This document shows, piece after piece, positions 1-19,476 of a DNA stretch of 20,000 nucleotides (position 1 is its first letter; each line of letters starts with the position of its first letter). Source of the DNA: Neolecta irregularis DAH-3 (taxonomy: Eukaryota). Location: positions 56,947 through 76,946 of the forward strand of contig LXFE01002636.1 of the NCBI GenBank assembly GCA_001929475.1, in the 5' to 3' direction. Both the position numbers and the translations under genes were made by a program. The notes beneath the pieces were generated by a model. The model ran no database searches. It worked only from the letters and a program-made list of their open reading frames with translations, and was not told the DNA's origin.

Positions 1-878
1 ACCATGCTGGGTAAACCAACTTTCAAGCTCTGATTGAGTGGTATCGTGAGGGAGATTGCGCATATGAATGATCTTTGATCTTTCTTCCAAGAAAGCTCGA
101 ACATCTGCTCGACCATCGAGTGGCCGAGAAAAGATGTCTTGATGTTGTTCTGCAGGAACAGATTTCCTGACGATTTGTCGAACAACCTGAGCGAGAATCA
201 AGCAGATCTCAGAAGCGCGTCTAGGTAGAGTCTGTATCTGATGATATGTATTATGCTGGGCATTCGGATGTGGATCGACATCTAGAGCGGCACAGATGTT
301 GGTCAAGGATGACGGACCAAACACCAGAGCTTCTGGATGGTGAACTTGCCACTTTGTATACTCGGCTCGAAGTTCATATGTCCGTGAATGTTGGAGATAG
401 AGCGGAAGGGCAACATGTTTATCTCGAGCCTCTCGAGGGATCTGCACTCTGATGTCCCATGAATCGAGAACTGCAAAACTAAACTCTAATCCCTTATCGA
501 TAAGATGCTCTTGAACAAAAGAATCAAATCGGTGAATTCCTTCTCGAAAGATTCCAGCGGACCGCACATGTTCCCAAGTGAGTCCAGCCAGGCTTGCTAC
601 AAAGGGTCAGTAGGGGCGGATCAAGGTGTTTTCGCCATACTGCAAGCCTCGGTAACCGGTGTATTTTGTGGGCGGATAAGGATGCTATCGCGATGTTTCT
701 TCGAATAAATCAGCATGTAAATAGCGACTTGGCATACCTCTGTCAGGGTTTTCGTGTCAAGAACAATCCATGCAAGCTCGATGACCTCCGAGCTATCTTT
801 ACCAACACACACGTTATGATCGTCGCAGGTACACGAAACATGAAGAACAATAACGGCGTCGAGACTCTCCGGTAGCAT
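1..878 (-). CDS. NRP1: NRP1/ARP-type RNA-binding protein (N-terminal exonuclease-like domain followed by RRM), 5' part only; continues beyond the left edge
   Basis: Exons 878-738, 698-641, 596-<1 (introns 699-737 and 597-640, GT-AG). Translation MLPESLDAVIVLHVSCTCDDHNVCVGKDSSEVIELAWIVLD...LTWEHVRSAG...LDSWDIRVQIPREARDK...DVRAFLEERSKIIHMRNLPHDTTQSELESWFTQHG. The LPxDTTQSELESWFTQ segment is the RRM start I recognise from fungal Nrp1/ARP proteins. Confidence 0.88.
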
Positions 879-1027
879 GGCGGAGTAGGAGTGTGTTGGT
901 GATATACAGGGGTAGCCGGAAGGAGGGAGGAGGAAGGGACAGCGTGGTGGTGAAAAAAAAAGAGCCAAGCCGATATAAAGCAAGACAGTCACAAAACTCT
1001 TTACACGTATATACGATACAACGAGAA

Positions 1028-4000
1028 CTATCTAGTTGGATCTGTTCGAGTACTACTCTGCTGCTTCAGCGGGATCACCAGCTAAAACTTCGAGAAGTTT
1101 CCGTATCGATACTTCAAACCGAGCCAGCGCATTCTTGGCAATAGTATCCGTAACAGCTTTGGTCTATTCCTTCTAAGAACATGTACTTTACGAGATAATA
1201 CCTCACTAATCTCTGCGGCCATATCGTAGACTTTTTGTAACTTTGTCGAGTTGCACTCGTTTGTGATATGTAATTTGCATAAAATGGAACATAGTGCTCT
1301 CCTTTCGTCCTCTATTCATGAGACAAAGATTTCCAAATTAGTGCCGTACTCGTGCCTATCTGCACTATTTGATGAAGAGCGTCGAGCGCCAGGTCCAGAT
1401 GAATATCCACATTGAGCATTTTCTTGGGTTCTGTTTTATATTTCAACGAAATCTCTTGAGCCGCTGCAAGTTTACGAGGATCTGTCCAATCAACTAACTG
1501 AGCGGCAATTTGGACAGGCGGCAGCATCTCTTCTTCCTCTTCCAACTCACTGTAAATTCGTGAAAGCTTATGTAATGCGGAGATGGAGATCTTGAGCAAG
1601 TCAGTCTTTCGAATATCTCAAGCTCCAACCTTTTGCATACGATATTGGTTTTCAGGGACAGAATGACAATAAACTGGTAGAAAGTAGCTGAGTGCTTGAC
1701 GGAGAGGTAAGTTGGTACTTGTGGAAGGTTCCATGTACAGTACAATAAGCGTTTCAAGAAGCTGTTGTTATTTAGCTCATACGACACTGATACACGTACC
1801 TCGTCATCTTTCAAAACCGAAGATAACATCAGCTTCGCAGCACCAATGCAAGCATTGGCTTGAACTTCAGGCGCATCTTCCAGAGATAATGCCTTTATGA
1901 AAAATTTGACAAGTTGATCAAAAGAGAGGGATCGATCGCCAAGCACTTTATCAGCATGTACCATTACAATATCAGATATAATGTGGATCGCTTCTATCTG
2001 CAATACTTCATGACCTTGGTGAAAACAATGAATAAACAGCATCAAATTTTCAGTTGCAAGAACCTAGTTATTAGACTGCAAAACGACGGAGTAGGCACGC
2101 TATCCAGTAGACAGCAAAGTCCCAAGCAATGAAGACCTCGTTCCCGAACAGGAGCTTCATGGCTTCTGACAGAAGGTACAATAAGAGCGCTCAAGATGCT
2201 TTTCAGCTGACTGTTATATTGTAATCCCTAGCAAATTAGCCCAAATTTAAAGGGACCAGTCTTACTCCAGATATATTTTCCAATAAGCACTGGACAATAT
2301 GCAGACATCTCATGTTTACGATAATTTCCTTAACAAGTCGTTCTTCGCCCGTGTCAATCACAGATGGTGATTCAGGCTCCTTCCTATGAGTTCTAGCGAT
2401 GTGTTTCCTGGGCGAAGTTCTGGGTGTAGTTTGATCAGAAGTGTCAGAATGTGCAGAATGAAATGATTCATTTGCCGGTGTCCCAGGTATAGATGTGTTT
2501 TCTCCAATAGTGATACTGTCGATGGTATCGTGGAGATCAGAGATAACTTCCAAGATAATTTGACAGAAATCTGTTTCGCGAGGCGTAATAACTTTGATTA
2601 CTTCAACTGTCCTGGCAGTGAGACTTTCGCCCAAGTCACTTGAGCGCAAAAGTTCGCCTGATAATAAGCAAGCAAAAAATCAAGTTTCTTACGAAGTATA
2701 GTAAACATCTTGCGCCTTCCAATTTCGTCGCTATAATCCATGGTAGAAGCGATCATCAGTAATTGCTCTACAATAAACTCAACTTCTTGTCTCATTTCTT
2801 CATCTGAGTTTCTTAGTTTAGAGACGTATTCGTGTATAATAAAAGCCAATTCGGTTACTTCTGGCATTCGATCTTCAATAAGATGCGAGACTTGGTTGTT
2901 TTCGTAGCAAAATTCGTTAAATGTTCGAGCCAAAAAAGCCGATTCTGCGGTCAAGTTGTTCCAGATAAAATCTGTTTATTCAGTTGAGAATGAGCAACGC
3001 CAGATACCATTGAATTCTATACCCTCCATGAACTCGGGCCTGGTTTTAAAAAATCTCATTATAGCCTCTTCAGCGATTTTGCTATTGACCACATCAAGCC
3101 TTTCGAAAAGCTGAATGTTAGTACTAATAGATGATTGCCAAACACCTCGAGAATATCATCATTCGCATGTCCAATCCACCCCATTGAAAACATATTTGTC
3201 GCCGCTTTTTGGACTTGGGCATCTCGATCTCGAAGGCCCCAACGAAGAAGTTTTTCTCGTTTTCCTATGCTGAGAAGCCTGAAATCTCCCAATTCATTCA
3301 AAGTGCGCGAGTAGACGTATTTCCTATTTATCGCATCTAAATCGCGGGCCCGCTCAAGAAGGTACGGCAATGTAATTTTACTTTGCGCTAGATTCAATAA
3401 AACGGCTCTACGAACTTCTCTGAGTCCTTTAGTATCCTTTGATATCAGATTTTGACGTACGCACTAGGGTCGTGCTGTAACAGTTCCAGAAGAACTGCTT
3501 GTATTCCTTCCCCACTTTCGTCTTCACCTTGTAGTCTTGCCAAAGCCGAAACTGCTTGCGCTCGGACCGAAGTCTCGCGATCTCGTACTCGCTTCATTAA
3601 TCCTAATAGCAAAGCTTGGTACAGGTCGTCACTATGTAGATCAATAAACACGCTCATGACGATGGGAATACTCTATTTCTCCAAGACATGCCATAACCAT
3701 TGCAATTGACTGGCAAACGCGTAAGCGGACAGATTTCTCCTTGGCTTCTAGGCCTCGTAGTAAATGAGTAATAAAAAAGGCGACGAAACGCATTGTTGTT
3801 GAATCTTCGTCGTCTTCCATCATGTCTTGCCGTTTAGTTGCATCTGTAATTCTCAGTGAGCGCATGCCGTCGATATACCCTTTTTTTGAATATGTTGTAC
3901 AAATGCAGCAGAAAACCTGATAATCCGATCTGAAGTAGGTTCACTCTTTTTGAGCGGCAAAATTCGATTAAAATTCCGCTTAAACTCGTCATTAAAGGCT

Positions 4001-4149
4001 CTTTCGCCCTTTAAAGCATGCTTGGTCGCGCAAGCATCTTGAATTGACCGGAGAGAATTGACTAGCTTTCTGTGTGTAGCTGTGGTTCTTTGCGCGTCTG
4101 AAAAAATTAGAGGAAGAGTCGAACAAATGTTTTCGACTGGATCTGCCAT
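1028..4149 (-). CDS. YCG1: Condensin complex HEAT-repeat subunit G (Ycg1/Cnd3/CAP-G)
   Basis: 13 exons joined through 12 GT-AG introns (3844-3878, 3632-3671, 3420-3460, 3111-3145, 2972-3007, 2658-2692, 2228-2265, 2064-2098, 1762-1799, 1591-1629, 1312-1349, 1164-1201) give one continuous frame. CAP-G motifs: IFSDAQRTTATHRKL, GLEAKEKSVRLRVCQ, RVRDRETSVRAQAVSALARLQ, LQHDPSAEVRRAVL, ERARDLDAINRK, DYSDEIGRRKMF, QLVDWTDPRKL. Stop TAG at 1028-1030. Confidence 0.93.
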
Positions 4150-4262
4150 GCTGGCAATCAAATATTCGGATGCAAGATAATAATAGTTGTATACAAAATA
4201 GCTCAATCGCGTCGGGGTGGTGTTGTTTCAGATAACTGCCTCTTGTTGTTTTTGTTCCCAGT

Positions 4263-5560
4263 ATGTTTGGTTCTTTTATACGCAGAAATATGCGTGCTGT
4301 AAAGCTCTGTTCACCGGTGGTTGATGATTTTGCTGGAGCTGTTGGGGGTACGCGTCTCGTATGTGATTTTTTTAATTGCTGCGTCTGAGAAATGCAGATT
4401 CGGTTGAACAACGTGTCTCGGGCGACAGGATGTGATATTTACGGCAAAGCAGAGTTCATGAATCCTGGAGGTTCAATCAAAGACCGCGCTGCGCTTTATG
4501 TTGTTCAAAATGCGGAAAGAGAAGGGTTGATTAAACCTCAAGGCACGATTGTGGAAGGTACGGCTGGAAACACGGGAATTGGTCTGGCACATATATGTCG
4601 GACCAGAGGATACAAGTGCGTGATATACATGCCAAACACCCAAGTAACGAGCTTGATACACCTATTCTTACTCTTTGAAGAGCCCAGCAAAAGTGGATCT
4701 GCTCCGCATGTTGGGCTGCCAAGTATATCCAGTGCCGGTACGATTCACTGGTACTCAGGCTCATAAGAGGCTGTTGCGTTCGATGACCCGGAAAACTACA
4801 ATCAGTATCGTTCATTTTCTGCTCTTGTCGCTTATGGACAAGCCAGGCAAGACGCCATGCCGAACGACTAGAAAACGCGGCTTGGACAAATCAGTTTGAC
4901 AACATGGCAAACCGACAAGCGCATATTGAAACAACTGGGCCCGAGATCTGGGACCAACTCCAAGGAAAGGTCACTTTTTTCCTTTTCATCTTTGCTTGAC
5001 TATCTCGCAGGTTGACGGGTTTGTTTGCGCAACCGGGACGGGAGGAACTCTTGCAGGAGTCTCACGATTCCTCAAAGAGAAGAGCGAGGGTAAGACTCAA
5101 TGTTATCTAGCAGATCCGCCGGGGAGTGTGCTCTACAGCTATATCAAATCTAGGGGTAAACTAAGATATCGAACAGGAAGTTCAATAACTGAGGGCATCG
5201 GTCAAGGTCGAGTCACGGAAAACTTAAAGCCAGATATCAGCTTGATCGATGACGCTCTCTATATACCAGACGAGAAATCCATAGAAATGCTTTACTGTCT
5301 GCTTGATGAGGAAGGTCTGTATTTAGGAGCTTCAAGTGCACTCAATGTTGTTGCTGCTTATGAAATGGCTAAAATTCTTGGACCTGGGAAGAAAATAGTT
5401 ACTGTTCTTTGCGGTATAAGCAAGCATTACAAAACACTACTCACTGTCAGATGGCGCATATCGATACCAAACACAGTTATTTAGTCGGAAATGGCTCGAT
5501 AGCAAAGGTTTAGTCTCTGCAATCCCTTCCCATCTACAAAAATATATTGTCTTGGCCTAA
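4263..5560 (+). CDS. cys11: Cysteine synthase (O-acetylserine sulfhydrylase, PLP-dependent), with a probable N-terminal mitochondrial presequence
   Basis: 7 exons; introns 4359-4397, 4644-4680, 4738-4769, 4805-4842, 4970-5010, 5414-5450. Motifs [14 protein letters not shown] (PLP lysine), [39 protein letters not shown]. The N-terminus [15 protein letters not shown] is Arg-rich and lacks acidic residues. Confidence 0.95.
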
Positions 5561-5747
5561 ACTTGTCGGTCGGATATTAATTGTTTGACGAAGTACTCTA
5601 GATGACACATTGAATTATGTTGATACCCCCTGTAATGCAGTCGTAGTTACAGGACACCCCAGAAGGTGTTAGATCAAGCCCCTAAAGGATTACAAAAAAG
5701 CTATTGGATGATACACACAAACTATCAAACAAGTTTACAATCCACTT

Positions 5748-8700
5748 TTAAACACCAACCCATCGTCTTGCAGATCTAAACATCTCGATCCAAGGGCCAA
5801 AATCACCCCATTCTTCCAATTTTCCATCGGGAACCCAGCTGTTCGCTTCGGCCAATATAACTCGTTCTGGATGTGGCATCAGTGCAAGAACTCGTCCGTC
5901 TGAACTTTGCACGCCGGCTACAGCATCTATGCTGCCGTTGGGATTATACGGAAAGTGTTGAGTGGGATTGCCATGATTATCTGTGTATCGAAGGACTATG
6001 TGCCCATTGCCTTTGGCCCGCAATAAATGATCCTCGGTTGTGAAAACAGCACGACCTTCCCCATGGGCACAGACAGCCGGGAAGTTCGATCTAGCCATAC
6101 TAGATAAGAACACAGAATTGATTTTAGGCGTGTCCATTACTTTCAACATGGAAACTCGGGCTTCGAATTGTTCGCTTATATTACGCTGAAAAGACGGCCA
6201 ATGTTCGGCACCAGGTATCAATTCCCTGAGATAACTCAAGAACTGACATCCGTTACAAACTCCAAGCGTAAATGTATCTTTTCTACTCAAGAATCGAAGA
6301 AATTCACGACGCATTTTTTGGTGAAAAAGGACTGATTTAGCCCATCCAGCACCAGCACCTAAAACATCTCCATAGGAAAACCCTCCGCATGCTGCGATTC
6401 CTACAAATGAGTCGAGTGTGACTTTTCCAGATAATAGATCAGTCATATGGACATCAACAGCAGTAAACCCCGACGAGTGAAACGCAAAAGCCATTTCGGA
6501 GTGGCCATTGATACCTTGTTCCCTGAGAATTGCAACTCTTGGACGCGATGAGAGCTGAATGGGAAGAATTGTTGTAACATGATTAAAAGTTAACTGATAG
6601 GATAACCCAGGATCAGGGCTCAAAATTGTTTCGTACTCTTGCTCGGCACAACTTGGGTTATCTCGAAGTTTTTGCATGGTGTATGACGTTTCCGCCCATG
6701 TGCTCTGAAGTTGTCCGCGGGTAGAAGAGAATAAGATTGAGCCATTGTGAAGGATTGTGAAATCATCCGTCTCTTGAACTGACGCAATGACGTGAATTGA
6801 AGTGGTAGATATTCCACGATTATTAAGGACGGCTGAAAATTCGTCCCTATCTTTCTCCAGGATTTGGAAAACAGCTCCAAGTTCTTCGTTAAAGAGGGTA
6901 GTAATTGCATCTTGTGTATCCAGCTTATCCAGGTCGACTAAGACTCCAGTCCTGCCGGCAAAAGACATTTCGGCGATAGTTGTAAATAAACCACCGTCAG
7001 ATCGGTCGTGATATGCCAATACGAGTCGTTGCTTTCGATGCAGGTCTCCAAGAGATAAGATGAACGCCTTAAGTAGTTGGGCGTTGACAAGGCATGGTGT
7101 GTCGTTGCCAATAGTAGAGAACACCTGAGCCAGCGCAGAGCCTCCCATTCGTTGACATCCTGTTGCAAGGTCGACAAACACCAAAACTGACGGACCGACA
7201 TTTTGAGGATTTCGCAATTGCGGGGTCCAGGTCTTTCGAACATCTGACACTGGGCTGAATGCAGTAATGACCAGAGATAATGGTGCGGTGACTTGGTAGA
7301 TGTCATAAGTTTGTTCATCGAACCATTTCATCTTCATGGACATTGAATCCTTTCCAACAGGAATACTGATGCCCAATGCAGGACAAAGATCAAGACCAAT
7401 CGCCTGGACAGCTTCGTAGAGTTTCGCTCCTTCACCATCATGGTCCGGGGCAGCCATCCAATTTGCACTTAATCTTACAAGAGATAAAGAAATATCCGCA
7501 GCAGCTAGATTCATTAAAGATTCAGCTACAGCCATTTGTGCAGATGCTTTTGCGGAGATGAGTGCAATCGTAGGTTTCTCGCCCATAGCCATTGCCTCGC
7601 CAGTTTGGATTCCCTCACCGAGAGATGACCGGGTAACACCAACGTCTGCGACTGGCACTTGCCATGGTCCAACCATCTGATCTCGAGTTACTAAACCAGT
7701 GACAGAGCGATCACCGATAGTTATCAAGAACGACTTGGATGCAACGGATGGTAAACGTAGTATACGATTGGCGGCTTCTTGAATGATTTCCGTCTGGGGA
7801 AGCGATGGCAAGTAACTTGTAAGGGAGGAATCAAACGGTGGATAAATGAGATTCCGAGAAACAACTGTTCTTGACATCTTTGGTGGTTTCCCAAAGAGAA
7901 CTGACATTGGCAAGTCAATTGGCGTAGTTGAGAAGAGTCGGTCCGTAAGGACTAGGCATTGCTCTTTGGTAGCATGACCGATAACTGCAAACGGACAACG
8001 TTCTCTATTTGCAAATGATTTAAAGAGATCGAGCTTTGCAGGACTGATAGCCAAAACATATCGTTCCTGAGCCTCGCAGCACCAGATTTGCATTGGTGAC
8101 ATTCCAGACTCGGCGCATGGTATGTCCCTCAATTCAAATCGTGCGCCATATCCAGCGTCATGGACAAGTTCTGGCAATGCATTGGATAGACCACCGGCTC
8201 CAACATCATGGATCGACTGAATCGGATTCTCGTTTCCAAGTCCCGCACAGGCGTCGATTAGCATTTGAGCTCGTCTCTGCATCTCGGGGTTTCCCCTTTG
8301 AACAGATGAAAAGTCGATATCTAATGACGATTCTCCCGAAGTCACACTCGAAGCTGCCCCGCCGCCAAGACCGATGAGCATCGATGGTCCTCCAAGTACA
8401 ATAATCGCAGCGTCGGATGTCATACCGGTTTTCAGAGCATTGCAGGGTCGCACAGTTCCAAGACCGCCAGCAATCATGATGGGTTTGTGATACCCTCGTA
8501 TTTCTGATTCCTCTTCCGTTACTGGAAGCTTCATGGTCAAAGTTCTGAAATATCCTGTTATTGATGGTCTTCCAAATTCATTATTAAAAGTAGCACTTCC
8601 AATCGGTCCGTCAATCATGATCTGATAGGGAGAAGATATATGTTCAGGTTTGCCAACATCGAGTTCCCAAGGTTGAATGTAGCCCGGAATATGCAAGTCC

Positions 8701-9852
8701 GAAACGCTAAAGCCCGTCAGGCCGGCCTTGGGCTTGGAGCCCTTCCCCACAGCGCCTTCATCTCTGATTTCCCCACCAGATCCAGTTGCTGCTCCTGCAA
8801 ATGGAGAGACAGCGGTAGGATGATTATGCGTTTCAACTTTTGTAACAAGATGGACTTTCTCTGGAGATAACTTCCATTCATGACTCGTGGATTCATCTGG
8901 TGAAAACACAAAACCGGGCGAACCTTCAAGAACTGCCGCATTATCAGAATAGGCGGAAATTGTAGATTTAGGGTTCAACAGGTGAGTGTTTCGAATCATC
9001 GAGAAGAGAGATTGATCTCGAGCTTTACCGTCGATTGTCCAATCTGCATTGAAGATTTTGTGTCGACAATGCTCTGAATTGACTTGCGAAAACATGAATA
9101 ATTCGACATCAGTAGGATTTCTGAGCTTCTCAAAGGCTCCATCAGAATTTTGGACGAATGCATTGACGAGATACTGGATTTCATCTTCGGCGAGTGCAAG
9201 ACCAAAATTCTCGTTTGCTTCTCGTAATTTATTTGAGGAAAACAAGAGATCCGGGGGATCAGCGGCGATCTCGACTTCGAGAAGGGGCGCTGGATCATAA
9301 TGAGTAAAGAAAGAAGCTGTAGGAGGTGTGGTTTGTATGGCTTGAGTCATTTTATCGTGCAATATATGTGAGATGGCTGAAAAGTACGGTAAAATATTCT
9401 TGTCATTTACAGTTTCGATTTGCAAGGCCATTCCACGTTCGATACGAAAGATTGAATTACCCAACCCGCAGACTTGAGCAATATTAGTGGCCTTTGACGA
9501 CCAGGGCGAAATTGTTCCTGGTCTCGGGAGGATATAAAACACATCTTTGGCATGGGTCTGGAAGAGTACGGTGCGCACAAGAGCGGCATCCTTTGGGCCG
9601 GGCGGTTCATCGTATCTGAGCAAAAGATCAAGTGTTTTCTGGACATTCTCGTTCCAGGATGATTTTGAGACCGGATTTAAATGAACATAGTGGACGTAGA
9701 TTGCGCGTAATGCGCATGGAATAGGCGCATCTGGAGGAATCGCAGCTGCTATACTAGATAAAAGCTCATCTGCACGAAACTGCGACAAGGCAATAGGACC
9801 TGCAGTATGAGAAATTGCAAAGAGCGCAAAATATACCTGGTAGAACCAGCAT
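5748..9852 (-). CDS. ADE6: Phosphoribosylformylglycinamidine synthase (FGAM synthase, large PurL type)
   Basis: Short exon 9852-9837 (MLVLP), intron 9800-9836, then a ~4.05 kb exon. Motifs PRPGTISPWSSKATNI, QVNSEHCRHKIFNA, KVETHNHPTAVSPFAGAATGSGGEIRDE, HDVGAGGLSNA, YHDRSDGGL, glutaminase GGFSYGDVLGAG / GVCNGCQ / MPHPER. Confidence 0.98.
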
Positions 9853-9954
9853 TTTCAACAAGAAAGTTGGAGGTTGAGGTCACCTGCCCAAAGTTTTAGC
9901 GAATTCCGGGATCGATCCACCATCCGCCAGGGTCCCCGAATTTATTTTCAAATA

Positions 9955-11086
9955 ATGGCCGAAACACCTTTTCCTGCATCTCCAGATCCGCGCTTGCACA
10001 TACTAAAACAGCTGGCTGCGAGCTATAAAGTCTCCTGTTCGGCCGCGGCCGCTTCAATCGTCTCGACTACCGTCGGATTTCCATTCGATAGCGTTAAAAC
10101 AAGAGTAAGTTTGTACAAATTCACCTCCGTATGGCATTGCATTAAAGAAACCCGCCGCATGGAAGGAATAAGGGGGTTTTTCCGGGGTATATCTTATTTC
10201 TATGGGTGATAACAGTGCTAAGGTATCTGGGTGCCATTATGTTCCATCACGGCTGTTAGAACCTGTTCTTTCTCGATTTACGCAAATACGAAGGATAGAT
10301 ATCGGGAGATACTCGCTCCAAATGTCCCTCCCCCACATGTCTCCCAGTTCACTAATACAGTCGCTGCAACGTTGGCTGGCCTGACCTCTGGAGCAGTTAT
10401 TTCGGTATAATCACACCTTATCGATGTCTCTTTAATTTACTCAAGGTCATCAGCTGCCCTTTTGAATTCACAAAACTCGCCATGCAAATCGAATACCTAC
10501 TTGCGAAAGCAAAATATAGCAGTGCGCCTGATTTTCCCAGTTACCCCGAGATTACACCCAAGGGAAGCCTGGAAACAGCAAAAGAAATCGTCCGAAACCG
10601 CGGTCTCCTCGGCCTCTACTCGGGGTTTCCATATCATCTACTCCGAGATGCTGCAGGCACCGGGCTGTATTTTACATTTTATGAATCATTCAAATGGGCT
10701 CTTACTCCCCATGACGGGGATGCAGGCACACTAACATTCGCTCTGAGTGGCGGGCTATGTGGTAGAAATCTACTCTAGTTCTCGGCTCATGAGAAATAGG
10801 CGTATTCAGCTGGCTTTTAGTGTTTCCGATCGATACATACAAATCAATACGACAAAGAGATATACTCACCAACCCACCTGGTGTTCTCATCACTCGCACC
10901 CGTCCGTTGAATTATAAGAGCCTTCGAAGGATGTACCGTGGGGTTGGGTACATACGCTAATTTGAATATAAAAAAGGCTAATTACATAGCGTTTCAGTGA
11001 TTCGGAGCTGCATAGTCAATGCCATCAATTTTACAGTATTTGAAAATATGAAGAAATGTATTGACAGATGGTCGAGTGATGAGTGA
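9955..11086 (+). CDS. Mitochondrial carrier family (SLC25) protein, substrate uncertain (amino acid/carnitine-carrier-like group)
   Basis: Introns 10187-10222, 10405-10445, 10762-10799, 10947-10989. Three PX[DE]XX[KR] signatures (PFDSVKTR, PFEFTKLA, PIDTYKSI) and EGIRGFFRG / RGLLGLYSG / RRMYRG motifs. Stop TGA at 11084-11086. Confidence 0.9.
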
Positions 11087-11210
11087 TACAGTATGATTGC
11101 AGTGCAGGAACGATAAAAAGATACATGGGACTCGATTGCTTTATGGAGTCTGTGAAACCAGGGTGGCATTTATGCATGGAATAATTAGGCTTCTTATCTA
11201 AACCGCAACT

Positions 11211-11933
11211 CTATGCCGTTATAGGATCGTTAGTCTGTAGATCTCTTGCCAGTTCCATTGAAGAGCGGTCTACTTTTGTAAGATAACATCGGAATTAGCT
11301 ATACCTTGCTCCTGTTTAGATGGTGCCTTTGCATCTGGGACGCTTGGCAGTTCAGGTAGTTCAGCAATTGCGAGTTGCCTTTGAATCTCTTCTAATTCCT
11401 CAAGGACTTCCTCTTCCTCTGCATTGGTAATCTTGGTTCCAAGCATCTCATTAATTTCCTTTACTCTCGGATCAAGGCAGAAAATACGAACATACGTTCT
11501 GATAAGCGATAGCTTCCGCAGTATCCTCCATTAATTTCTCAACGGCTTCTAACGACATCTCCAGATGCAGTTCCTTTAATACTGAATTTCCCTGTTTAAG
11601 TCCATATATCACATCCTTTTCGACTAGCGCAAATTCAATAGAAGAAGTCTAGATCGTTATTTAAACTGCTTTGATTGGGGATACCAATTGTTCCAATGTT
11701 GCCAACTGTTGATCAGTTTTTGCCAATAATTGCTCCTGATATTTCCTCCGTCTGAGAGCAAGTAAAGCACGATCTTTATCCTTTTTCTGTAAACATTCTT
11801 TAGCCCATCCCCGTTCTTTATCCAGCACCACTTGAATCTTGCGTTGATACATTTTGACTTTATCACGCTGGACTTTCATGTCGAGAATTGCACGATCTTG
11901 CGAGGTAATTCTACGACTCGAAGTCACACCCAT
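11211..11933 (-). CDS. VPS20: ESCRT-III subunit Vps20 (CHMP6, Snf7 family)
   Basis: Starts MGVTSSRRITSQDRAILDMKVQRD (myristoylation-type Gly2; ITxQDRAILxxKxQRD is typical of Vps20), then ALLALRRRKYQEQLL, SIEFALVEKDVIYGLKQGN, MIM2-like LPELPSVP. Introns 11649-11684, 11459-11495, 11270-11304. Ends ...NDPITA*. The last exon is less certain than the rest. Confidence 0.92.
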
Positions 11934-12108
11934 AACTCCTTTGTAAACCGAAAAAGGTGGGCTAGATTTGAATAATATCGTAGGAAAGCGAAACAAAAAT
12001 GAGTTCAGGAGATACCTTCGGTCGTTATCAATATTACGCCGTTTCCCGATTAGGTTAGCGTCAAATAACAACCGTTGAAACTCAAAAAATCATTCATTCT
12101 TTTTTAAA

Positions 12109-14777
12109 ATGCCGCCACGTAGAGCCACAAGCACTACTTTGACAGGAGTGCTTGATACAAAGATTATGGCAAAGATACACGAATTAGAAGAATATGAAAC
12201 GTCGAAAAATTCAAACGATTCCCTAACCGTCTCGCGAATTTACCAATATCTGCAAGAATCAGATCATGCATTTCGGAGGATGAAGAAGTCCATTCTTGAA
12301 AAAAGCATTGGACGGATATTGACAAGTTTCCAGGGAGAATTTAATGAGGAAGAACCTATCTCTCTCGATAGTGATTTTGAAGGGTTGGAAGAACAAGATT
12401 TGGTACAAGTTAAAGTACAAAGTCCACTTTCCTCGGACAATTAGAGCTGATACGTATCCTAGAACAAGAATGCGATGAATAAAGGGATAACCAGTTTATG
12501 GAAATCGCAAATTCCTTTCAATGCATCCGCAGAATCTATAAATCCGGATGACAAGAAACGTGATGGACTTCAGGATGAATCGACTATGCCGCCGAGTAAA
12601 CGAAAAGAAAGACCTGATGGAAAAGAAAGCGGATCTTCAAAGAAACATAAAGGTCAAGCTTGAGGTATATATAAGCTGACTGCTACAGTAGAAAACAAAT
12701 GGGCATCTCCTTCCAACATTAGTCTAGAAGATTTAGGAGGAGTAGAGGACTGTGTGGAGGAAATTCTGGAGCTGATTGCGATGCCGTTGTCTCATCCAGA
12801 GGTATACGCTTATACTGGAATTCAACCACCAAGGTATCCAAGGATTTTTTTTTGCCTAAGTTTATAGAGGCATACTTCTTCATGGACCACCAGGTTGTGG
12901 AAAAACCATGATGGCAAATGCTATTGCAGGAGTACTACAACTTGACTTGTCAGTCTTCTAACCCATATAGGAATTAAAAATTCCATTTATGTCTCTTTCT
13001 GCACCTTCAGTCGTATCTGGAATGTCTGGTGAATCAGAAAAGAAAGTTCGTGATATCTTTGAAGAAGCAAAACAGCTTGCACCGTGCATCGTATTCCTGG
13101 ATGAGATCGATGCAATCACTCCTAAACGTGAGAATGCTCAGCGAGAGATGGAAAGACGGATAGTCGCACAACTATTAACTTGTATGGATGGTACGTACAT
13201 CACATTGCTTTGAACTAGTTCATATTCAAGATCTATCCTTTGAGAAAACAAATGGGAAGCCAGTTTTGATTATTGGAGCTACGAATCGTCCCGATTCTTT
13301 AGATCCCGCGCTACGGAGAGCTGGACGATTTGACCGAGAGATTTGTATGAATGTACCCAGTGAAAAAGGTCGCGAGAGGTACATGAACAAGGAAATTGTT
13401 CCGCTGATTGTAATACAGTATTCTAAAAGTAATATCCAAAGGACTGCGATTATCTGGAGATTTAGATTTCAAATCGTTGGCTAGAATGACACCTGGCTAT
13501 GTTGGTGCTGATTTGAAAGCATTAACGGGTGCCGCTGGAGTTGCTGCTATCAAAAGAATATTCAAAGACCTGGCCCTCGTATTACCAAACCTGGATTGTA
13601 TAGATCTTGACAACGAAGATGATTCTGCCATGATCATCGAGGCCAACGATACAATGCCTCCCAATCAATTTTCTGCTGTACAAAAATTCCTGCAAATCCA
13701 TAAAACTGCACTGACACCCGAACAACTCGCACCATTGTCGATAACTCCAGAAGACTTTCTGACTGCTTTGCCGAAAATTCAACCCTCTTCGAAACGGGAG
13801 GGTTTTACTACTGTTCCAGATGTAACTTGGGCTGATGTCGGAGCTTTACAATCTATTCGGATCGAACTCCAGATGGCTATTGTACAACCCATCAAACGAC
13901 CAGAGTTGTATGCCAGTGTAGGTATCACAGCACCGGCTGGTGTTCTCCTCTGGGGCCCTCCAGGATGCGGTAAAACCTTATTAGCAAAAGCTGTAGCGAA
14001 TGAAAGTAAAGCGAATTTCATATCTGTCCGTGGACCTGAATTGCTAAACAAGGTTTTTCATTTCTTTTATGGAGGGATTCTAATAATTTAGTATGTTGGT
14101 GAATCTGAACGAGCTGTTCGGCAAGTGTTTCTTCGAGCGCGTGCATCAGCTCCCTGTGTAATATTTTTTGATGAGTTGGATGCATTGGTACCTCGACGAG
14201 ACGATTCCTTATCCGAGTCCTCCTCAAGGGTTGTTAATACGCTGCTGACCGAACTTGATGGCCTTGGAGATCGAAATGGCGTATATGTTATTGCGGCTAC
14301 CAACCGGCCGGATATAATTGATCCGGCAATGATGCGGCCGGGTCGACTCGATAAACCGCTATTTGTTGACCTGCCTAGCAAAGAAGAGCGGTTTGAGATA
14401 TTGAAGACATTGACCAAGAAGACACCGTTGTCACCAGATGTCCATCTAGCCGAGATTGCCATTGACACAAGATGCGAAAACTTTAGGTAATAGTTTCAAG
14501 ATCAACGGATGCTGATTATCGAAGCGGGGCTGATTTAGCTGCACTTGTCCGGGAAGCTGCTGTGGCTGCTTTGCGCATTGCTGTATTTGAAGATATTGCA
14601 CAGGGGGAACCATTGCTGAATGAATCTTCGAGCAAGTCGATCAAAGTGACCAGTGGAGATTTCCATAAAGCTTTCTCGAATGTACAGCCAAGTGTGTCTA
14701 CAAAAGACAGGCAAAAGTATACAATACTGAGTAAACGATATGGAATTCCAACCGCAGATCCAACCAAACAGTATTAG
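12109..14777 (+). CDS. RIX7: Ribosome biogenesis AAA+ ATPase Rix7 (NVL2 orthologue)
   Basis: 9 exons; introns 12415-12462, 12653-12688, 12834-12867, 12932-12970, 13191-13230, 13379-13418, 14053-14091, 14487-14524. Two AAA modules (GPPGCGKT twice; FLDEID and FFDELD Walker B) and Rix7-typical [34 protein letters not shown] and [10 protein letters not shown]. Confidence 0.95.
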
Positions 14778-14791
14778 ACTAGACTCGGTTA

Positions 14792-15355
14792 TTACGACTC
14801 CGTCTCTGCAGTTTGATAGCTAGGAGTAAACAATAAGGCTTATGGTAGATATGGGACATACTAGGAAGATTCTAGATCATGGGGCTTGTTTAATGTAATT
14901 ATAATGGTGATTATCGGTTTGATGTGTCTATATTATGAGAAATGCTGGAATCAACAGTACTTTGTCTCTTGTTTGAGCAACGACGGCTGAACTGGTTCGA
15001 AATCGTCTTCTGTATCCTCACAATGTCAATTTCGGAATGATAATAAACATACCTGGTGGCCGGTGGGATTAGACTTTGCCTTTTTTACGATTTCCAATGA
15101 AGCCAAGTTGGTCTTTTGCCACCAGATTTTCCCGGATTCATCCAAGCGACGTTTAATGATTTCGGAGATTGTGATGGCTTTCCCTGCTGCCGCGCCTGTT
15201 CCTTTAAACGAAACCGAATGGTGTTTGCCTAATGTTTCGAGTCCCCTGTTTACTGCTTTTGTAATATTACAAGACAGCGCGATATCCACCTCGTCAGATT
15301 CCTCTGTGATCTTTCTTTTTGCGCCCTGTGCATCTACAACAACATCTTGCGGCAT
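14792..15355 (-). CDS. Alba-domain protein, probably the Rpp25/Pop6-type RNase P/MRP subunit
   Basis: Exons 15355-15053, 15016-14961, 14927-14862, 14819-14792. Alba core VSFKGTGAAAGKAITISEIIKRR, then an acidic insert (DTEDDFEP), then a C-terminal beta strand PIITIIITL that appears only after splicing, followed by ..YQ.., matching the Rpp25/Pop6 layout. Confidence 0.72.
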
Positions 15356-15541
15356 GGACGACTGGTTTAGATGATTATAGTTTAGATGGTCCAGTTAAAA
15401 GGAGGCAAACACATCAAGGTGCCCTGGCGCAAAAAGACTGGGAATGTGCCTCACTCGCCATTCTCCCTCTCCTTCCCTTGTTTTCATGTGGGTGATTTTC
15501 TCGCTTCTTATTTGACTACTATTTCATGGTGGAGCCTCCAA

Positions 15542-16971
15542 ATGGGCTCCAAATGCAACGCGGCACATGATTGCCATACTGCTCTTTTGTCCTCTTGTAA
15601 GCTCTACTGTTCTCGCCGCAAATGCTAAATCCTAGCCATTGCAGATGCACGGTCGTTGTCGGATATCCTTGCCGAACAAATCGATCTCGAAATTCTGATT
15701 CGGCACAAGGAACTGCAAGAAATAGACCAGCAGATCCAGAGAGCAGAGACTACCCTATCGATCATAGTGCAGAGCAATGGTATCCAGCATGCCTTGATGT
15801 GTTTATCAAATAGAATACTCTTCAACCAAGACGCCCGTAAAAGCTCGCCACGATGCAACGAAATCCCCTTTCACTCCACCCTACTCGAATTCGCCCAAGA
15901 GGTTTGATACCACAGCCGCTGAACAATCTATCTCGGGGTATAGAGGTATAAAGGAAAAGAAAACACCAAGAATGTAGGCATAATCCAATACTGCAATTAA
16001 CTCTGTCAGGCTGACTTGTCCCGGCTGCAAACGCAGTAATTTCAGGAATATGGTGACCCTTCTTGCCCACTATCGTAGAACCCATGATGATAACCACTCG
16101 GCCAAAGAAACTGCTCCAATCTCTTGCAAATACGACGATGACCATCACATCGTTTCTCCGCTTCCTATACCATCAAAGCTACGCAACACTGAGCAAGAGA
16201 GGTTTTCTTTTTCCACACCATTTGCTTAGATTTAGTTCGCTTGATATTGTCGGCCTGTATTGTTCCTCTGGTGCCGATAAATTCTCGACGAGCAACGTAA
16301 AATATATCATCAGACACCCAACTGATACAGTCTAGGCCAATAATGGTTCGCAGAATAAGGAAAGTTTCCATGTAAATTGCCCTCAATTTCTCAAATCATT
16401 TCTTGAGAGTCAGTCCTCTGATATCGATATTACAGCGATTTACAACCACGTTACTGAACCAATCAACAATTACGAGTCAAATTCAACACCGTCGTCGAAT
16501 AAAGGTTCAGGCGTTGACTCTGGTCAGTATCATTTAAACCTGAGACCTGGACACCCGAAGCATAAAATTACTAAACAACAACAAAAACGAAGGAATCTTA
16601 CGAAACAAAAATGTCCAAAAGTACCACGATTGGTACCTATGGCCTCGAATATACCACAACGACGAATAGGCTTGAAATCACCGGATACACTACTTCATGT
16701 CCACCAAGGCCGCAAAACTCTCAAGTATCTTCGCAGTGAAAAGATACAGTCCACTGTAGGTTTAATGGAACGAACTGTATTGTCAAAGTCAAGATTTTAT
16801 CAAAAATTATTTCAGGCGACAGTAAATCGTGCGGATCTACTCACACCAACTAAATCCCACTCGCCATTTTCAAAAGGAAAAAACGCAAGTGTTGGGCTGG
16901 TTCCATATTCCTCTAAAACTCTTAAAAATTCGGTACATTCCTTTTGTCTAGATTTGATGCTAACTAAATAG
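15542..16971 (+). CDS. Ahc1-like protein (ADA histone acetyltransferase complex component) with a C2H2-type zinc finger; both ends of the model uncertain
   Basis: Predicted introns 15597-15635, 15780-15813, 15974-16009, 16202-16235, 16297-16335. N-terminal EQIDLEILIRHKELQEIDQQI resembles the fungal Ahc1 'LEILLKHxELRLIDQE' block, and LTCPGCKRSNFRNMVTLLAHYRRTH resembles the Ahc1 zinc finger. The frame is open from 16336 to the stop at 16971, but further introns there cannot be excluded. Confidence 0.62.
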
Positions 16972-17527: not shown

Positions 17528-18020
17528 ATGACAGTGCCAAAGGTCGAGACTTCATCATCAAGGCCTCTTGCTCTCTGTCCCCTTCGTCGCTACGATGATG
17601 CATATGTCCAGTTACGTACGATTCACGAATTGGAAGACCTCAGGGACCGGTTTGCAGTCATGGTTTCTAGACTCAAGGAGTCCATGCTGCAAACTCGGGA
17701 AGAAATCGACCAATTGCAAGTTTCGTACAAAAAGCTCCAAACTGAGAACGAAGAGCTACAAAAGTCCAAATTCTCGCTTGAAGAAGATTTAGCATCTTCC
17801 ACAGAAGCTCATCAGAAAGAAACCGAAGCCCACAAGGATGAAGTCGCTGCCCTTCGCAAGGAAATCGCAGAGTTGACTGGTAAAAGTGAGGGTAAGGGCA
17901 AAAGACTGAACTTGCTAAATATCCTTATTAGCCGCCTCTGCTGAGTTGGCTGCTATCGAACGAGCTGGATCTTTAATGAGTAAAAAGAAAAAGACAACCA
18001 CTTTTTTTTCTCGGACATAG
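17528..18020 (+). CDS. Small coiled-coil protein of unknown function (~150 aa) with a polybasic C-terminus
   Basis: Exon 17528-17891, intron 17892-17931 (GTAAGG...GCTAAAT...TAG), exon 17932-18020 (AASAELAAIERAGSLMSKKKKTTTFFSRT*). Heptad-like E/K/Q/L-rich body. TATA-like element ~45 nt upstream. Confidence 0.7.
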
Positions 18021-18294: not shown

Positions 18295-18758
18295 TCAAAG
18301 AGACATTAATTCATCCTCACTGTCTCCTACGCTCAGTTTTTGACTCAGCTTGCGAACCCATAAGGTGTTGTTGCTAATATGTTCCTCAGGAACTCGAGCC
18401 AACCTCATATCCCAGATATCATCTTCCAGCTGAAGAAAAGGAATGTTATCGTGGCCTGGACTGTTGTTTGGAGTAGAAGTAGCTCTTGGAACGATCTTTG
18501 TGTAAAGCGGCCGAGACGCTTTAGCGCCAAGTGAGAGTGGTTCAGAAGGTTCAACTTTTTGCTTTAAATTGGTCTTGGAATTGGTCTTGATGCCAAGAAC
18601 ATTGATTGGTTTCCTGGTAGTGTGGACGAGAGAAGGTTCCGAATCTTTTGACTAAATAAGGCAAAAGAAGAGCAAGAACCTTGGTCTAGATGGACCTTGA
18701 AAGAACGAGCGTTCTTATAAGTAGATACTCTTCGAAATTTTTCCCGATGATCAGGCAT
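18295..18758 (-). CDS. Small (142 aa) disordered protein; candidate Moa1/Spo13/MEIKIN-type meiotic kinetochore factor
   Basis: Exon 18758-18680, 35-nt intron 18645-18679 (GTTCTT...AAAG), exon 18644-18295 (350 nt, stop-free until TGA). Protein: MPDHREKFRRVSTYKNARSFKVHLDQDSEPSLVHTTRKPINVLGIKTNSKTNLKQKVEPSEPLSLGAKASRPLYTKIVPRATSTPNNSPGHDNIPFLQLEDDIWDMRLARVPEEHISNNTLWVRKLSQKLSVGDSEDELMSL*. The existence of the gene is fairly well supported; the functional call is inference from short motifs. Confidence 0.6.
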
Positions 18759-19120
18759 GTTTAATCTGATTGCAGTGATAGTGCAGACTAGAGAAAGGTA
18801 GGGGGACGAGCTATTTTGGTGATGAGTAATAAACTGCTATGATTTGCCTGCAGTGCATACGACGCTATTTGTAGCGACGAGAAAGAATTTCAGAATTGCA
18901 CCAACGGGGATGAAGCATATAGTCTAGAAGAATGTTCTTTCTCTAGATGGAACATGGTACAAAATCGTAAAGAAATGAACCGCTGCTTTCGTTCTACCAC
19001 GAGCTAATAATATACTGAAAATAACCAACAAAACCGGCGAGGAACGCCTGACACCATAACCCCTTTTATGAACGACAACCGACACCGACCGTACCCATAA
19101 TGAAAGAGAAAAGGCGAGGT

Positions 19121-19476
19121 TTAAAAGGTGATAGTAATGCGTTTCCTCCAGAGATTGCCGGTCCAGAGCGGAGGCGGATGGTCTGTCGGAGAGTGCGGCC
19201 TGCAAAAAGCCTGCTGCTGTTGCAGCTGCTGGGTGCGGTGGGCGGTGGTGTTCTTTGAGTAGGAGTAGCGATCTGCGGAGGATAGTAGAGGCAGGGCGGC
19301 GGATGCAGAATGGGATCTGGGAGCCTGCAGATCTGCGAGGCGGCAGGTCTGGATACAGTCAGAAACCAATTGCAGGTTGGAGCAGTTAGCCGTGCCTGGG
19401 AACAGTACACAGCGCCTTCACGGACGCATTTATCGCAGACGAGACAAAAATCGAGACCAGGCACCTGCATTGCCAT
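19121..19476 (-). CDS. ecl1: Ecl1-family (extender of chronological lifespan) small Cys4 protein, 102 aa
   Basis: Exon 19476-19396 (MAMQVPGLDFCLVCDKCVREGAVYCSQ), GC-AG intron 19349-19395, exon 19348-19121 (TCRLADLQAPRSH...). Splicing gives the family motif FCxxCD..YCSxxCRLxD. Confidence 0.82.

Follow-up and report, generated by a model that had tools for sequence, protein, structure and literature searches.

Gene Model and Genomic Context

A two-exon gene, NEOLI_000229, lies on the minus strand at 18295..18758 of the window (the whole 20,000-nt stretch of Neolecta irregularis DAH-3 DNA that was analysed) and encodes a protein of 142 aa. Exon 1 (18680..18758, minus strand) starts at the ATG (18758), which has an A at -3, and comprises 26 codons plus one base; its product, MPDHREKFRRVSTYKNARSFKVHLDQ, is basic, includes an RRVS site and equals the N-terminus of the public protein OLL22924.1. 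The exon is followed by a GT-AG intron of 35 nt (18645..18679, minus strand; GTTCTT ... CTTAT ... AAAAG), whose junction is the same as in OLL22924.1, and by exon 2 (18295..18644, minus strand), which encodes residues 27-142 and ends with the stop codon (18297..18295). In the plain ORF list the same region appears as a 64-aa ATG ORF (18564..18758, minus strand), the fragment that the first-pass annotation had pointed out, and as a stop-to-stop frame of 118 codons (18295..18651, minus strand) without an early ATG. Removal of the intron (18679..18645) joins the ATG exon to this 118-codon frame. The spliced product proposed in the first-pass annotation proved correct, being letter for letter the same as OLL22924.1 (A0A1U7LJV3), which is deposited as "hypothetical protein NEOLI_000229" of Neolecta irregularis DAH-3. 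The gene had also been described as hidden, a description that has to be dropped because the identical model is already public. The frame can also be restored through two other GT-AG pairs found by intron enumeration, at 18695..18652 (44 nt) and at 18706..18645 (62 nt); either would alter only residues ~17-28 of the protein.

The Neolecta genome is reported to have 14.5 Mb and 4.3 introns per gene, with DNA and RNA obtained from field-collected whole fruiting bodies and an annotation made with MAKER by merging ab initio, homology and transcript evidence (PMC5309816, available part of the supplement). In the best explanation, NEOLI_000229 is a real, already annotated, lineage-restricted two-exon gene of Neolecta irregularis.

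Upstream of the ATG, an intergenic region of 307 nt (18759..19065, minus strand), presumed to hold the promoter and the 5'UTR, extends up to the stop codon of an Ecl1-like gene. This region contains two TCTAGA palindromes (18923-18947), 13 nt apart, which flank GAACATTC (a GAAnnTTC dyad) at ~165-190 nt upstream of the ATG; of the regulatory-type patterns scanned for, this arrangement alone is present in the presumed promoter. The gene upstream, also on the minus strand (19066-19476), starts with MAMQVPGLDFCLVCDKC, has a low codon score (0.011) and shows a sub-threshold Pfam match to Ecl1 (TORC1 inhibitor; E 0.0033, with 19 bits where the cut-off is 28.3). The convergent neighbour (17528-17944, plus strand) encodes a coiled-coil protein of 138 aa, for which only generic coiled-coil Pfam matches were found (ADIP, CENP-F_leu_zip, CENP-H and others), all of them below the cut-offs. 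Positions 1-15400 of the window carry common housekeeping genes of a compact fungal genome, named by eye from their translations. These include a single-exon FGAM synthase of 1368 codons (5748-9854, minus strand), as well as cysteine-synthase-like, mitochondrial-carrier-like, AAA ATPase, Snf7/Vps20-like and condensin-subunit-like genes.

Orphan Status and Predicted Disorder

The protein has no recognisable relative in the databases searched. Pfam returned no family for either exon frame at E<=10, and a PDB sequence search at E<=10 returned no match. A word-seeded search of 5.8 billion proteins with exon 2 as the query examined 10 candidates and returned only NEOLI_000229 itself (100% identical), which is also the one member of its protein cluster. 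Against 1.84 billion representatives, phmmer at E<=0.001 recovered two proteins, the query itself and one rodent protein, and no other fungal match; any similarity to Moa1 would lie below that threshold. The rodent protein, a 607-aa protein of Scotinomys teguina with seven tandem repeats (E 5.5e-6), was treated as spurious, because its E-value sums seven weak repeat matches; its best single BLASTP piece reaches 27 bits with 14/49 identities. The expectation of the first-pass annotation that ordinary searches would miss relatives in this lineage agrees with these results, the organism belonging to the Taphrinomycotina and Pfam, PDB, the word-seeded search and phmmer all being without a relative.

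The whole protein is predicted to be disordered. Its ESM Atlas entry has a pTM of 0.14 and a pLDDT of 0.50, and the best of its Atlas neighbours (feature score 0.76, TM<=0.33) falls inside the stated noise. AlphaFold2 without an alignment gave a pLDDT of 42 and a pTM of 0.13, with 138/142 residues below 50, no secondary structure and no helix of at least 4 residues. With such predicted disorder, any function of the protein must lie in short linear motifs.

Short Linear Motifs

Two motifs occur in the protein, at the positions given for them in the first-pass annotation: VLGIKTN at residues 42-48 (18600..18580) and PRATSTP at residues 79-85 (18469..18489, minus strand). The first is part of INVLGIKTN, a putative D-box-like element at residues 40-48 (18580..18606, minus strand) with L43, K46, T47 and N48, directly followed by a second KTN at residues 50-52. 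INVLGIKTN fits the non-canonical form of the D-box that lacks the first R; it has neither a basic first residue nor an acidic residue, and it is not an LxExxxN motif. PRATSTP includes S83-T84-P85, a candidate Polo-box docking site by the definition S-[pS/pT]-P, as worded in the accessible literature, and T84-P85 is in itself a minimal proline-directed (Cdk-type) site. In the motif listing, a second minimal site, S88-P89 (18457..18462, minus strand), may likewise be a target of a proline-directed kinase. The C-terminal tail (residues 124-142; 18298..18354, minus strand) reads RKLSQKLSVGDSEDELMSL and ends as had been described, basic R/K-x-S sites giving way to an acidic/hydrophobic end; no structure is predicted for this tail, for which the first-pass annotation had proposed binding to CENP-C.

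Internal echoes were also observed (residues 28-39 and 60-72; 18568-18582 and 18445-18561, minus strand), KTN occurring twice (IKTNSKTN) and SEPSL...RKP being echoed by SEPLSL...SRP. Additionally, the string EKFR (residues 6-9), of the ExxR type, superficially resembles the separase site ELFR of MEIKIN; it is probably there by chance, because it is so near the N-terminus.

A Candidate Meikin-Type Regulator

Meikins (MOKIRs) are the factors that establish the reductional pattern of the first meiotic division. In the available text of PMC10577557 they are described as weakly conserved, disordered proteins that bind Polo kinase and occur in meiosis I only; another source describes their conservation as restricted to the Polo-box motif. 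Spo13 and Moa1 have no sequence conservation, and both carry a short STP motif and are destroyed at anaphase I (PMC4683677, part of the text). The Polo-box motif of Spo13, in the S132/S134 region of a protein with 10 S/T-P sites, is printed there as the conserved string STSTP, exactly as the first-pass annotation had given it. The APC/C degron of Spo13 is given as LxExxxN, with L26A stabilising the protein, which is consistent with the LQEKTPN that the first-pass annotation had given for it, a string not seen in print among the matches listed. The Moa1 string ALQDKTN of the first-pass annotation is also in print, within the functional D-box RPALQDKTN (residues 32-40), in which L35A makes Moa1 persist through meiosis II, and the same source reports the D-box KCILKDKTN of Sgo1 (residues 182-190), stabilised by L185A (10.1101/2025.09.19.677360, part of the text). 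In shugoshins, functional non-canonical D-boxes without the first R have been reported, together with a Polo consensus, D/E-x-S/T, that lies within the box (10.1101/2025.09.22.677724, part of the text). MEIKIN binds Plk1 through three STP motifs and has two Ile-rich motifs at its C-terminus (bioRxiv 2020.11.29.402537, part of the text), and both Moa1 and MEIKIN are described, in the passages available, as targeted to the kinetochore via the C-terminal/cupin region of CENP-C (Cnp3). The string PVATSTP, also given for Moa1 in the first-pass annotation, was not found in the literature among the matches listed, of which a paper with this string would have come first; nor, among the matches listed and the parts of them accessible, was any link between Neolecta and Moa1 or meikin.

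Compared with this class, NEOLI_000229 is small, poorly conserved and predicted to be disordered, a combination that is generic, and it has the STP Polo-box motif (S83-T84-P85), which is weakly specific. Judged from its motifs and their order, it is a plausible candidate for a meikin-type protein, put forward tentatively and at somewhat less than even probability. In the mechanism proposed here, a proline-directed kinase would phosphorylate T84 in PRATSTP, and the resulting S-pT-P would dock the Polo-box domain of Polo kinase. INVLGIKTN, through L43, would act as a non-canonical D-box by which APC/C-Cdc20 would remove the protein at anaphase I, and the C-terminal third, which is hydrophobic and acidic, would serve as a tether, perhaps to CENP-C. 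On the present analysis, a meikin/MOKIR-type regulator is the most likely specific mechanism for NEOLI_000229. The first-pass annotation had gone further and named the protein a meikin orthologue. Of that proposal, the splice, the product, the positions of the motifs and the Moa1 and Spo13 strings hold, and the orthology is a lead and not a finding, because the KTN box differs from those of Moa1 and Sgo1 and from LxExxxN, and because PVATSTP was not found. True orthology of NEOLI_000229 with Moa1 is doubtful. No FLEX, MCB, MSE or URS1 consensus, searched as plain strings, was found in the upstream 307 nt; this empty promoter scan is weak evidence against a meikin.

In the accessible parts of the literature, no conservation of meikins beyond STP is described. 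A Neolecta protein that combined a KTN D-box of the Moa1 type with a TSTP like that of Spo13 could serve as the bridging sequence from which a family profile is built. If NEOLI_000229 were truly orthologous to Moa1, the family would have a recognisable ancestral layout, made up of a D-box of the L..KTN type near the N-terminus, a (T)STP in the middle as the Polo dock and a tether at the C-terminus. Spo13 and more than one class of Taphrinomycotina would share this layout. Moa1 and Spo13 could then be tied together as homologues and not analogues, and a motif-order profile could find meikins in fungi where BLAST fails. Were the resemblance due to chance, NEOLI_000229 would simply add to the annotated orphan genes and would illustrate how little an STP proves.

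Alternative Explanations

The alternative that survives best, although it is rather unlikely, is that NEOLI_000229 encodes a genuine but unrelated orphan protein, small, disordered and specific to its lineage, in which STP and L..KTN occur by chance. Its function would then lie outside Polo, APC/C and the kinetochore, and it might be, for example, a structural, stress or fruiting-body protein with generic kinase sites. The failure to find a homologue anywhere (Pfam, word-seeded search, PDB, phmmer, ESM Atlas) is consistent with this, as is the S/T/P/K-rich composition of the protein, which makes such motifs frequent. Among 200,000 composition-matched shuffles, S[ST]P was present in 17.7%, STP in 7.25%, KTN in 4.7% and TSTP in 0.39%, and L..KTN was present in 0.51% of 300,000. 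Of the 24 ORF pieces of the window taken as coding, with 4,625 residues in all, four have an S[ST]P and two an STP. In the six-frame translation of the window (39,996 residues), STP was found 12 times and TSTP once, at the NEOLI_000229 site, and L..KTN three times, one being that of NEOLI_000229 and one spanning a stop. A further uncharacterised open frame of 211 codons (16336-16971, plus strand), rich in S/T/K/Q and without a Pfam family, has an STP of its own (..YESNSTPSS..), so that STP alone is not distinctive. The D-box-like motif also lacks two positions seen in Moa1 and Sgo1.

Against a chance origin, L..KTN followed by STP was present in only 0.018% of 300,000 composition-matched shuffles, a figure for a pattern defined after the sequence had been seen, and the motif pair is at Moa1-like positions; furthermore, a purely unrelated orphan offers no mechanism. 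By a rough estimate that allows for motif flexibility, between a few tenths of a protein and about one small protein per proteome may look as good by chance. This estimate, combined with a modest prior for a recognisable Moa1 in Neolecta, leaves the meikin-type reading credible while keeping it short of an even chance.

Less probable still, and clearly unlikely, is an annotation artefact, in which a chance frame of 118 codons in a 1.1-kb intergenic stretch was joined through a weak pair of GT-AG sites and may overlie a non-coding transcript. The absence of any relative among the 1.84 billion representatives, the single-member cluster and the low-complexity, predicted disordered protein are all compatible with such an artefact, and the window contains 48 ORFs of at least 90 codons, many of them shadows. 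The coding signal was assessed with a codon log-odds model trained on 2,840 codons from well-recognisable genes within the window. The CDS scores 0.131 bit/codon and exon 2 alone 0.141 bit/codon, and the annotated frame scores highest, the other five frames all being negative. These values lie inside the range of real genes, whose windows (n=52) average 0.184 +/- 0.047, an optimistic average because the windows overlap the codon training set, and above the maximum of 0.049 seen in 260 non-coding-frame windows. When stop codons are left out of the scoring, exon 2 comes 9th among the 68 stop-free ORFs of at least 80 codons; two shadow ORFs score about level with it, which makes the codon support for coding moderate and not decisive.

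The splice signals, a GTTCTT 5' site and a CTTAT branch-like element, look weak, but the other introns of the window are equally degenerate. From frame continuity and conserved junction peptides, five further short introns of 32-41 nt were inferred, with 5/6 targeted junctions recovered, all on the plus strand: 4738-4769 (32 nt, 5' site GTACGA), 4805-4842 (38 nt, GTATCG, with the CTTAT element as in NEOLI_000229), 4970-5010 (41 nt, GTCACT), 13379-13418 (40 nt, GTACAT) and 14053-14091 (39 nt, GTTTTT). The last of these lies within the AAA ATPase gene (ELLNK|YVGESE), so that a similarly degenerate 5' site is in use in a recognisable gene. The 5' splice sites of the five have nothing constant beyond the GT, and branch-like CTNAT/TTGAC elements lie 6-13 nt from their AG. 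Judged by sequence, the 35-nt intron of NEOLI_000229 resembles these local introns and appears typical of them. The ATG with A at -3 is found exactly where a short frame-restoring intron exists, and Rfam and tRNA scans of the window gave no match; both speak against an artefact. Moreover, MAKER by default keeps evidence-backed models, and for this gene only transcripts could have supplied the evidence, which, if the default applied here, would also count against it.

Another small APC/C-linked cell-cycle regulator, such as a securin-like or Mes1-like substrate or inhibitor using the D-box-like INVLGIKTN near its N-terminus, is very improbable: LEDDI (residues 99-103) fits the phi-E-x-x-X separase pseudosubstrate pattern, in the form given in the accessible text, but that pattern is too loose to carry weight, and the 142 aa contain no KEN box and no RxxL and have no Pfam match at E<=10, to securin or to any other family. 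Known securins are longer than 142 aa and have an N-terminal KEN box or RxxL D-box and a C-terminal region that binds separase, the animal forms being covered by Pfam Securin; the Mes1-type inhibitor, a meiotic protein of ~100 aa, requires a KEN box beside its D-box. For the small meiotic protein Mes1 of S. pombe, a D-box of non-canonical form is described, quoted as RxxLxxxI (10.1101/2025.09.22.677724, part of the text).

Comparison with Known Systems

As a putative meikin-type regulator, NEOLI_000229 can be set beside five described proteins, for which the features given here are those in the accessible text of the sources. Any likeness to MEIKIN would lie in its STP motifs for Plk1 and its C-terminal kinetochore-targeting region. 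MEIKIN is much longer, with a C-terminal domain at 328-373 and the conserved separase site ELFR at 151-154, whereas the only ExxR of NEOLI_000229, EKFR, is at its extreme N-terminus. The Ile-rich ICCII/DIII motifs with which MEIKIN binds CENP-C have no likeness in the C-terminal tail, and NEOLI_000229 is without an Ile-rich motif.

Matrimony of Drosophila is a small Polo regulator and a likely MOKIR orthologue, with L21 in an APC/C motif of the LxExxxN type, which NEOLI_000229 does not fit. Sgo1 of S. pombe has L..KTN in common with NEOLI_000229 in its box KCILKDKTN, and its class is described as being without the first R; however, Sgo1 is a coiled-coil/SGO-motif protein, and the D-K-T Polo consensus in its box is absent from NEOLI_000229.

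No similarity to Spo13 was found by sequence search. The candidate elements of NEOLI_000229 follow the order seen in Spo13, where the APC/C degron (L26) is N-terminal and the Polo-box motif central, and TSTP is common to the STSTP of Spo13 and the ATSTP of NEOLI_000229. Spo13 is described, and NEOLI_000229 predicted, as disordered. The degron of Spo13 is LxExxxN, whereas the putative one of NEOLI_000229 is LxxxxN, without the E, and the 10 S/T-P sites of Spo13 compare with two.

Moa1, also small and also from the Taphrinomycotina, was compared by its printed motifs only. Unlike the Moa1 box, that of NEOLI_000229 has I for R at position 1 and I for D at position 6. The L, K, T and N of RPALQDKTN (residues 32-40) and INVLGIKTN (residues 40-48) are identical and in the same register, the two boxes are at a nearly equal distance from the N-terminus, and in both proteins an STP Polo-box motif follows downstream of the KTN box.
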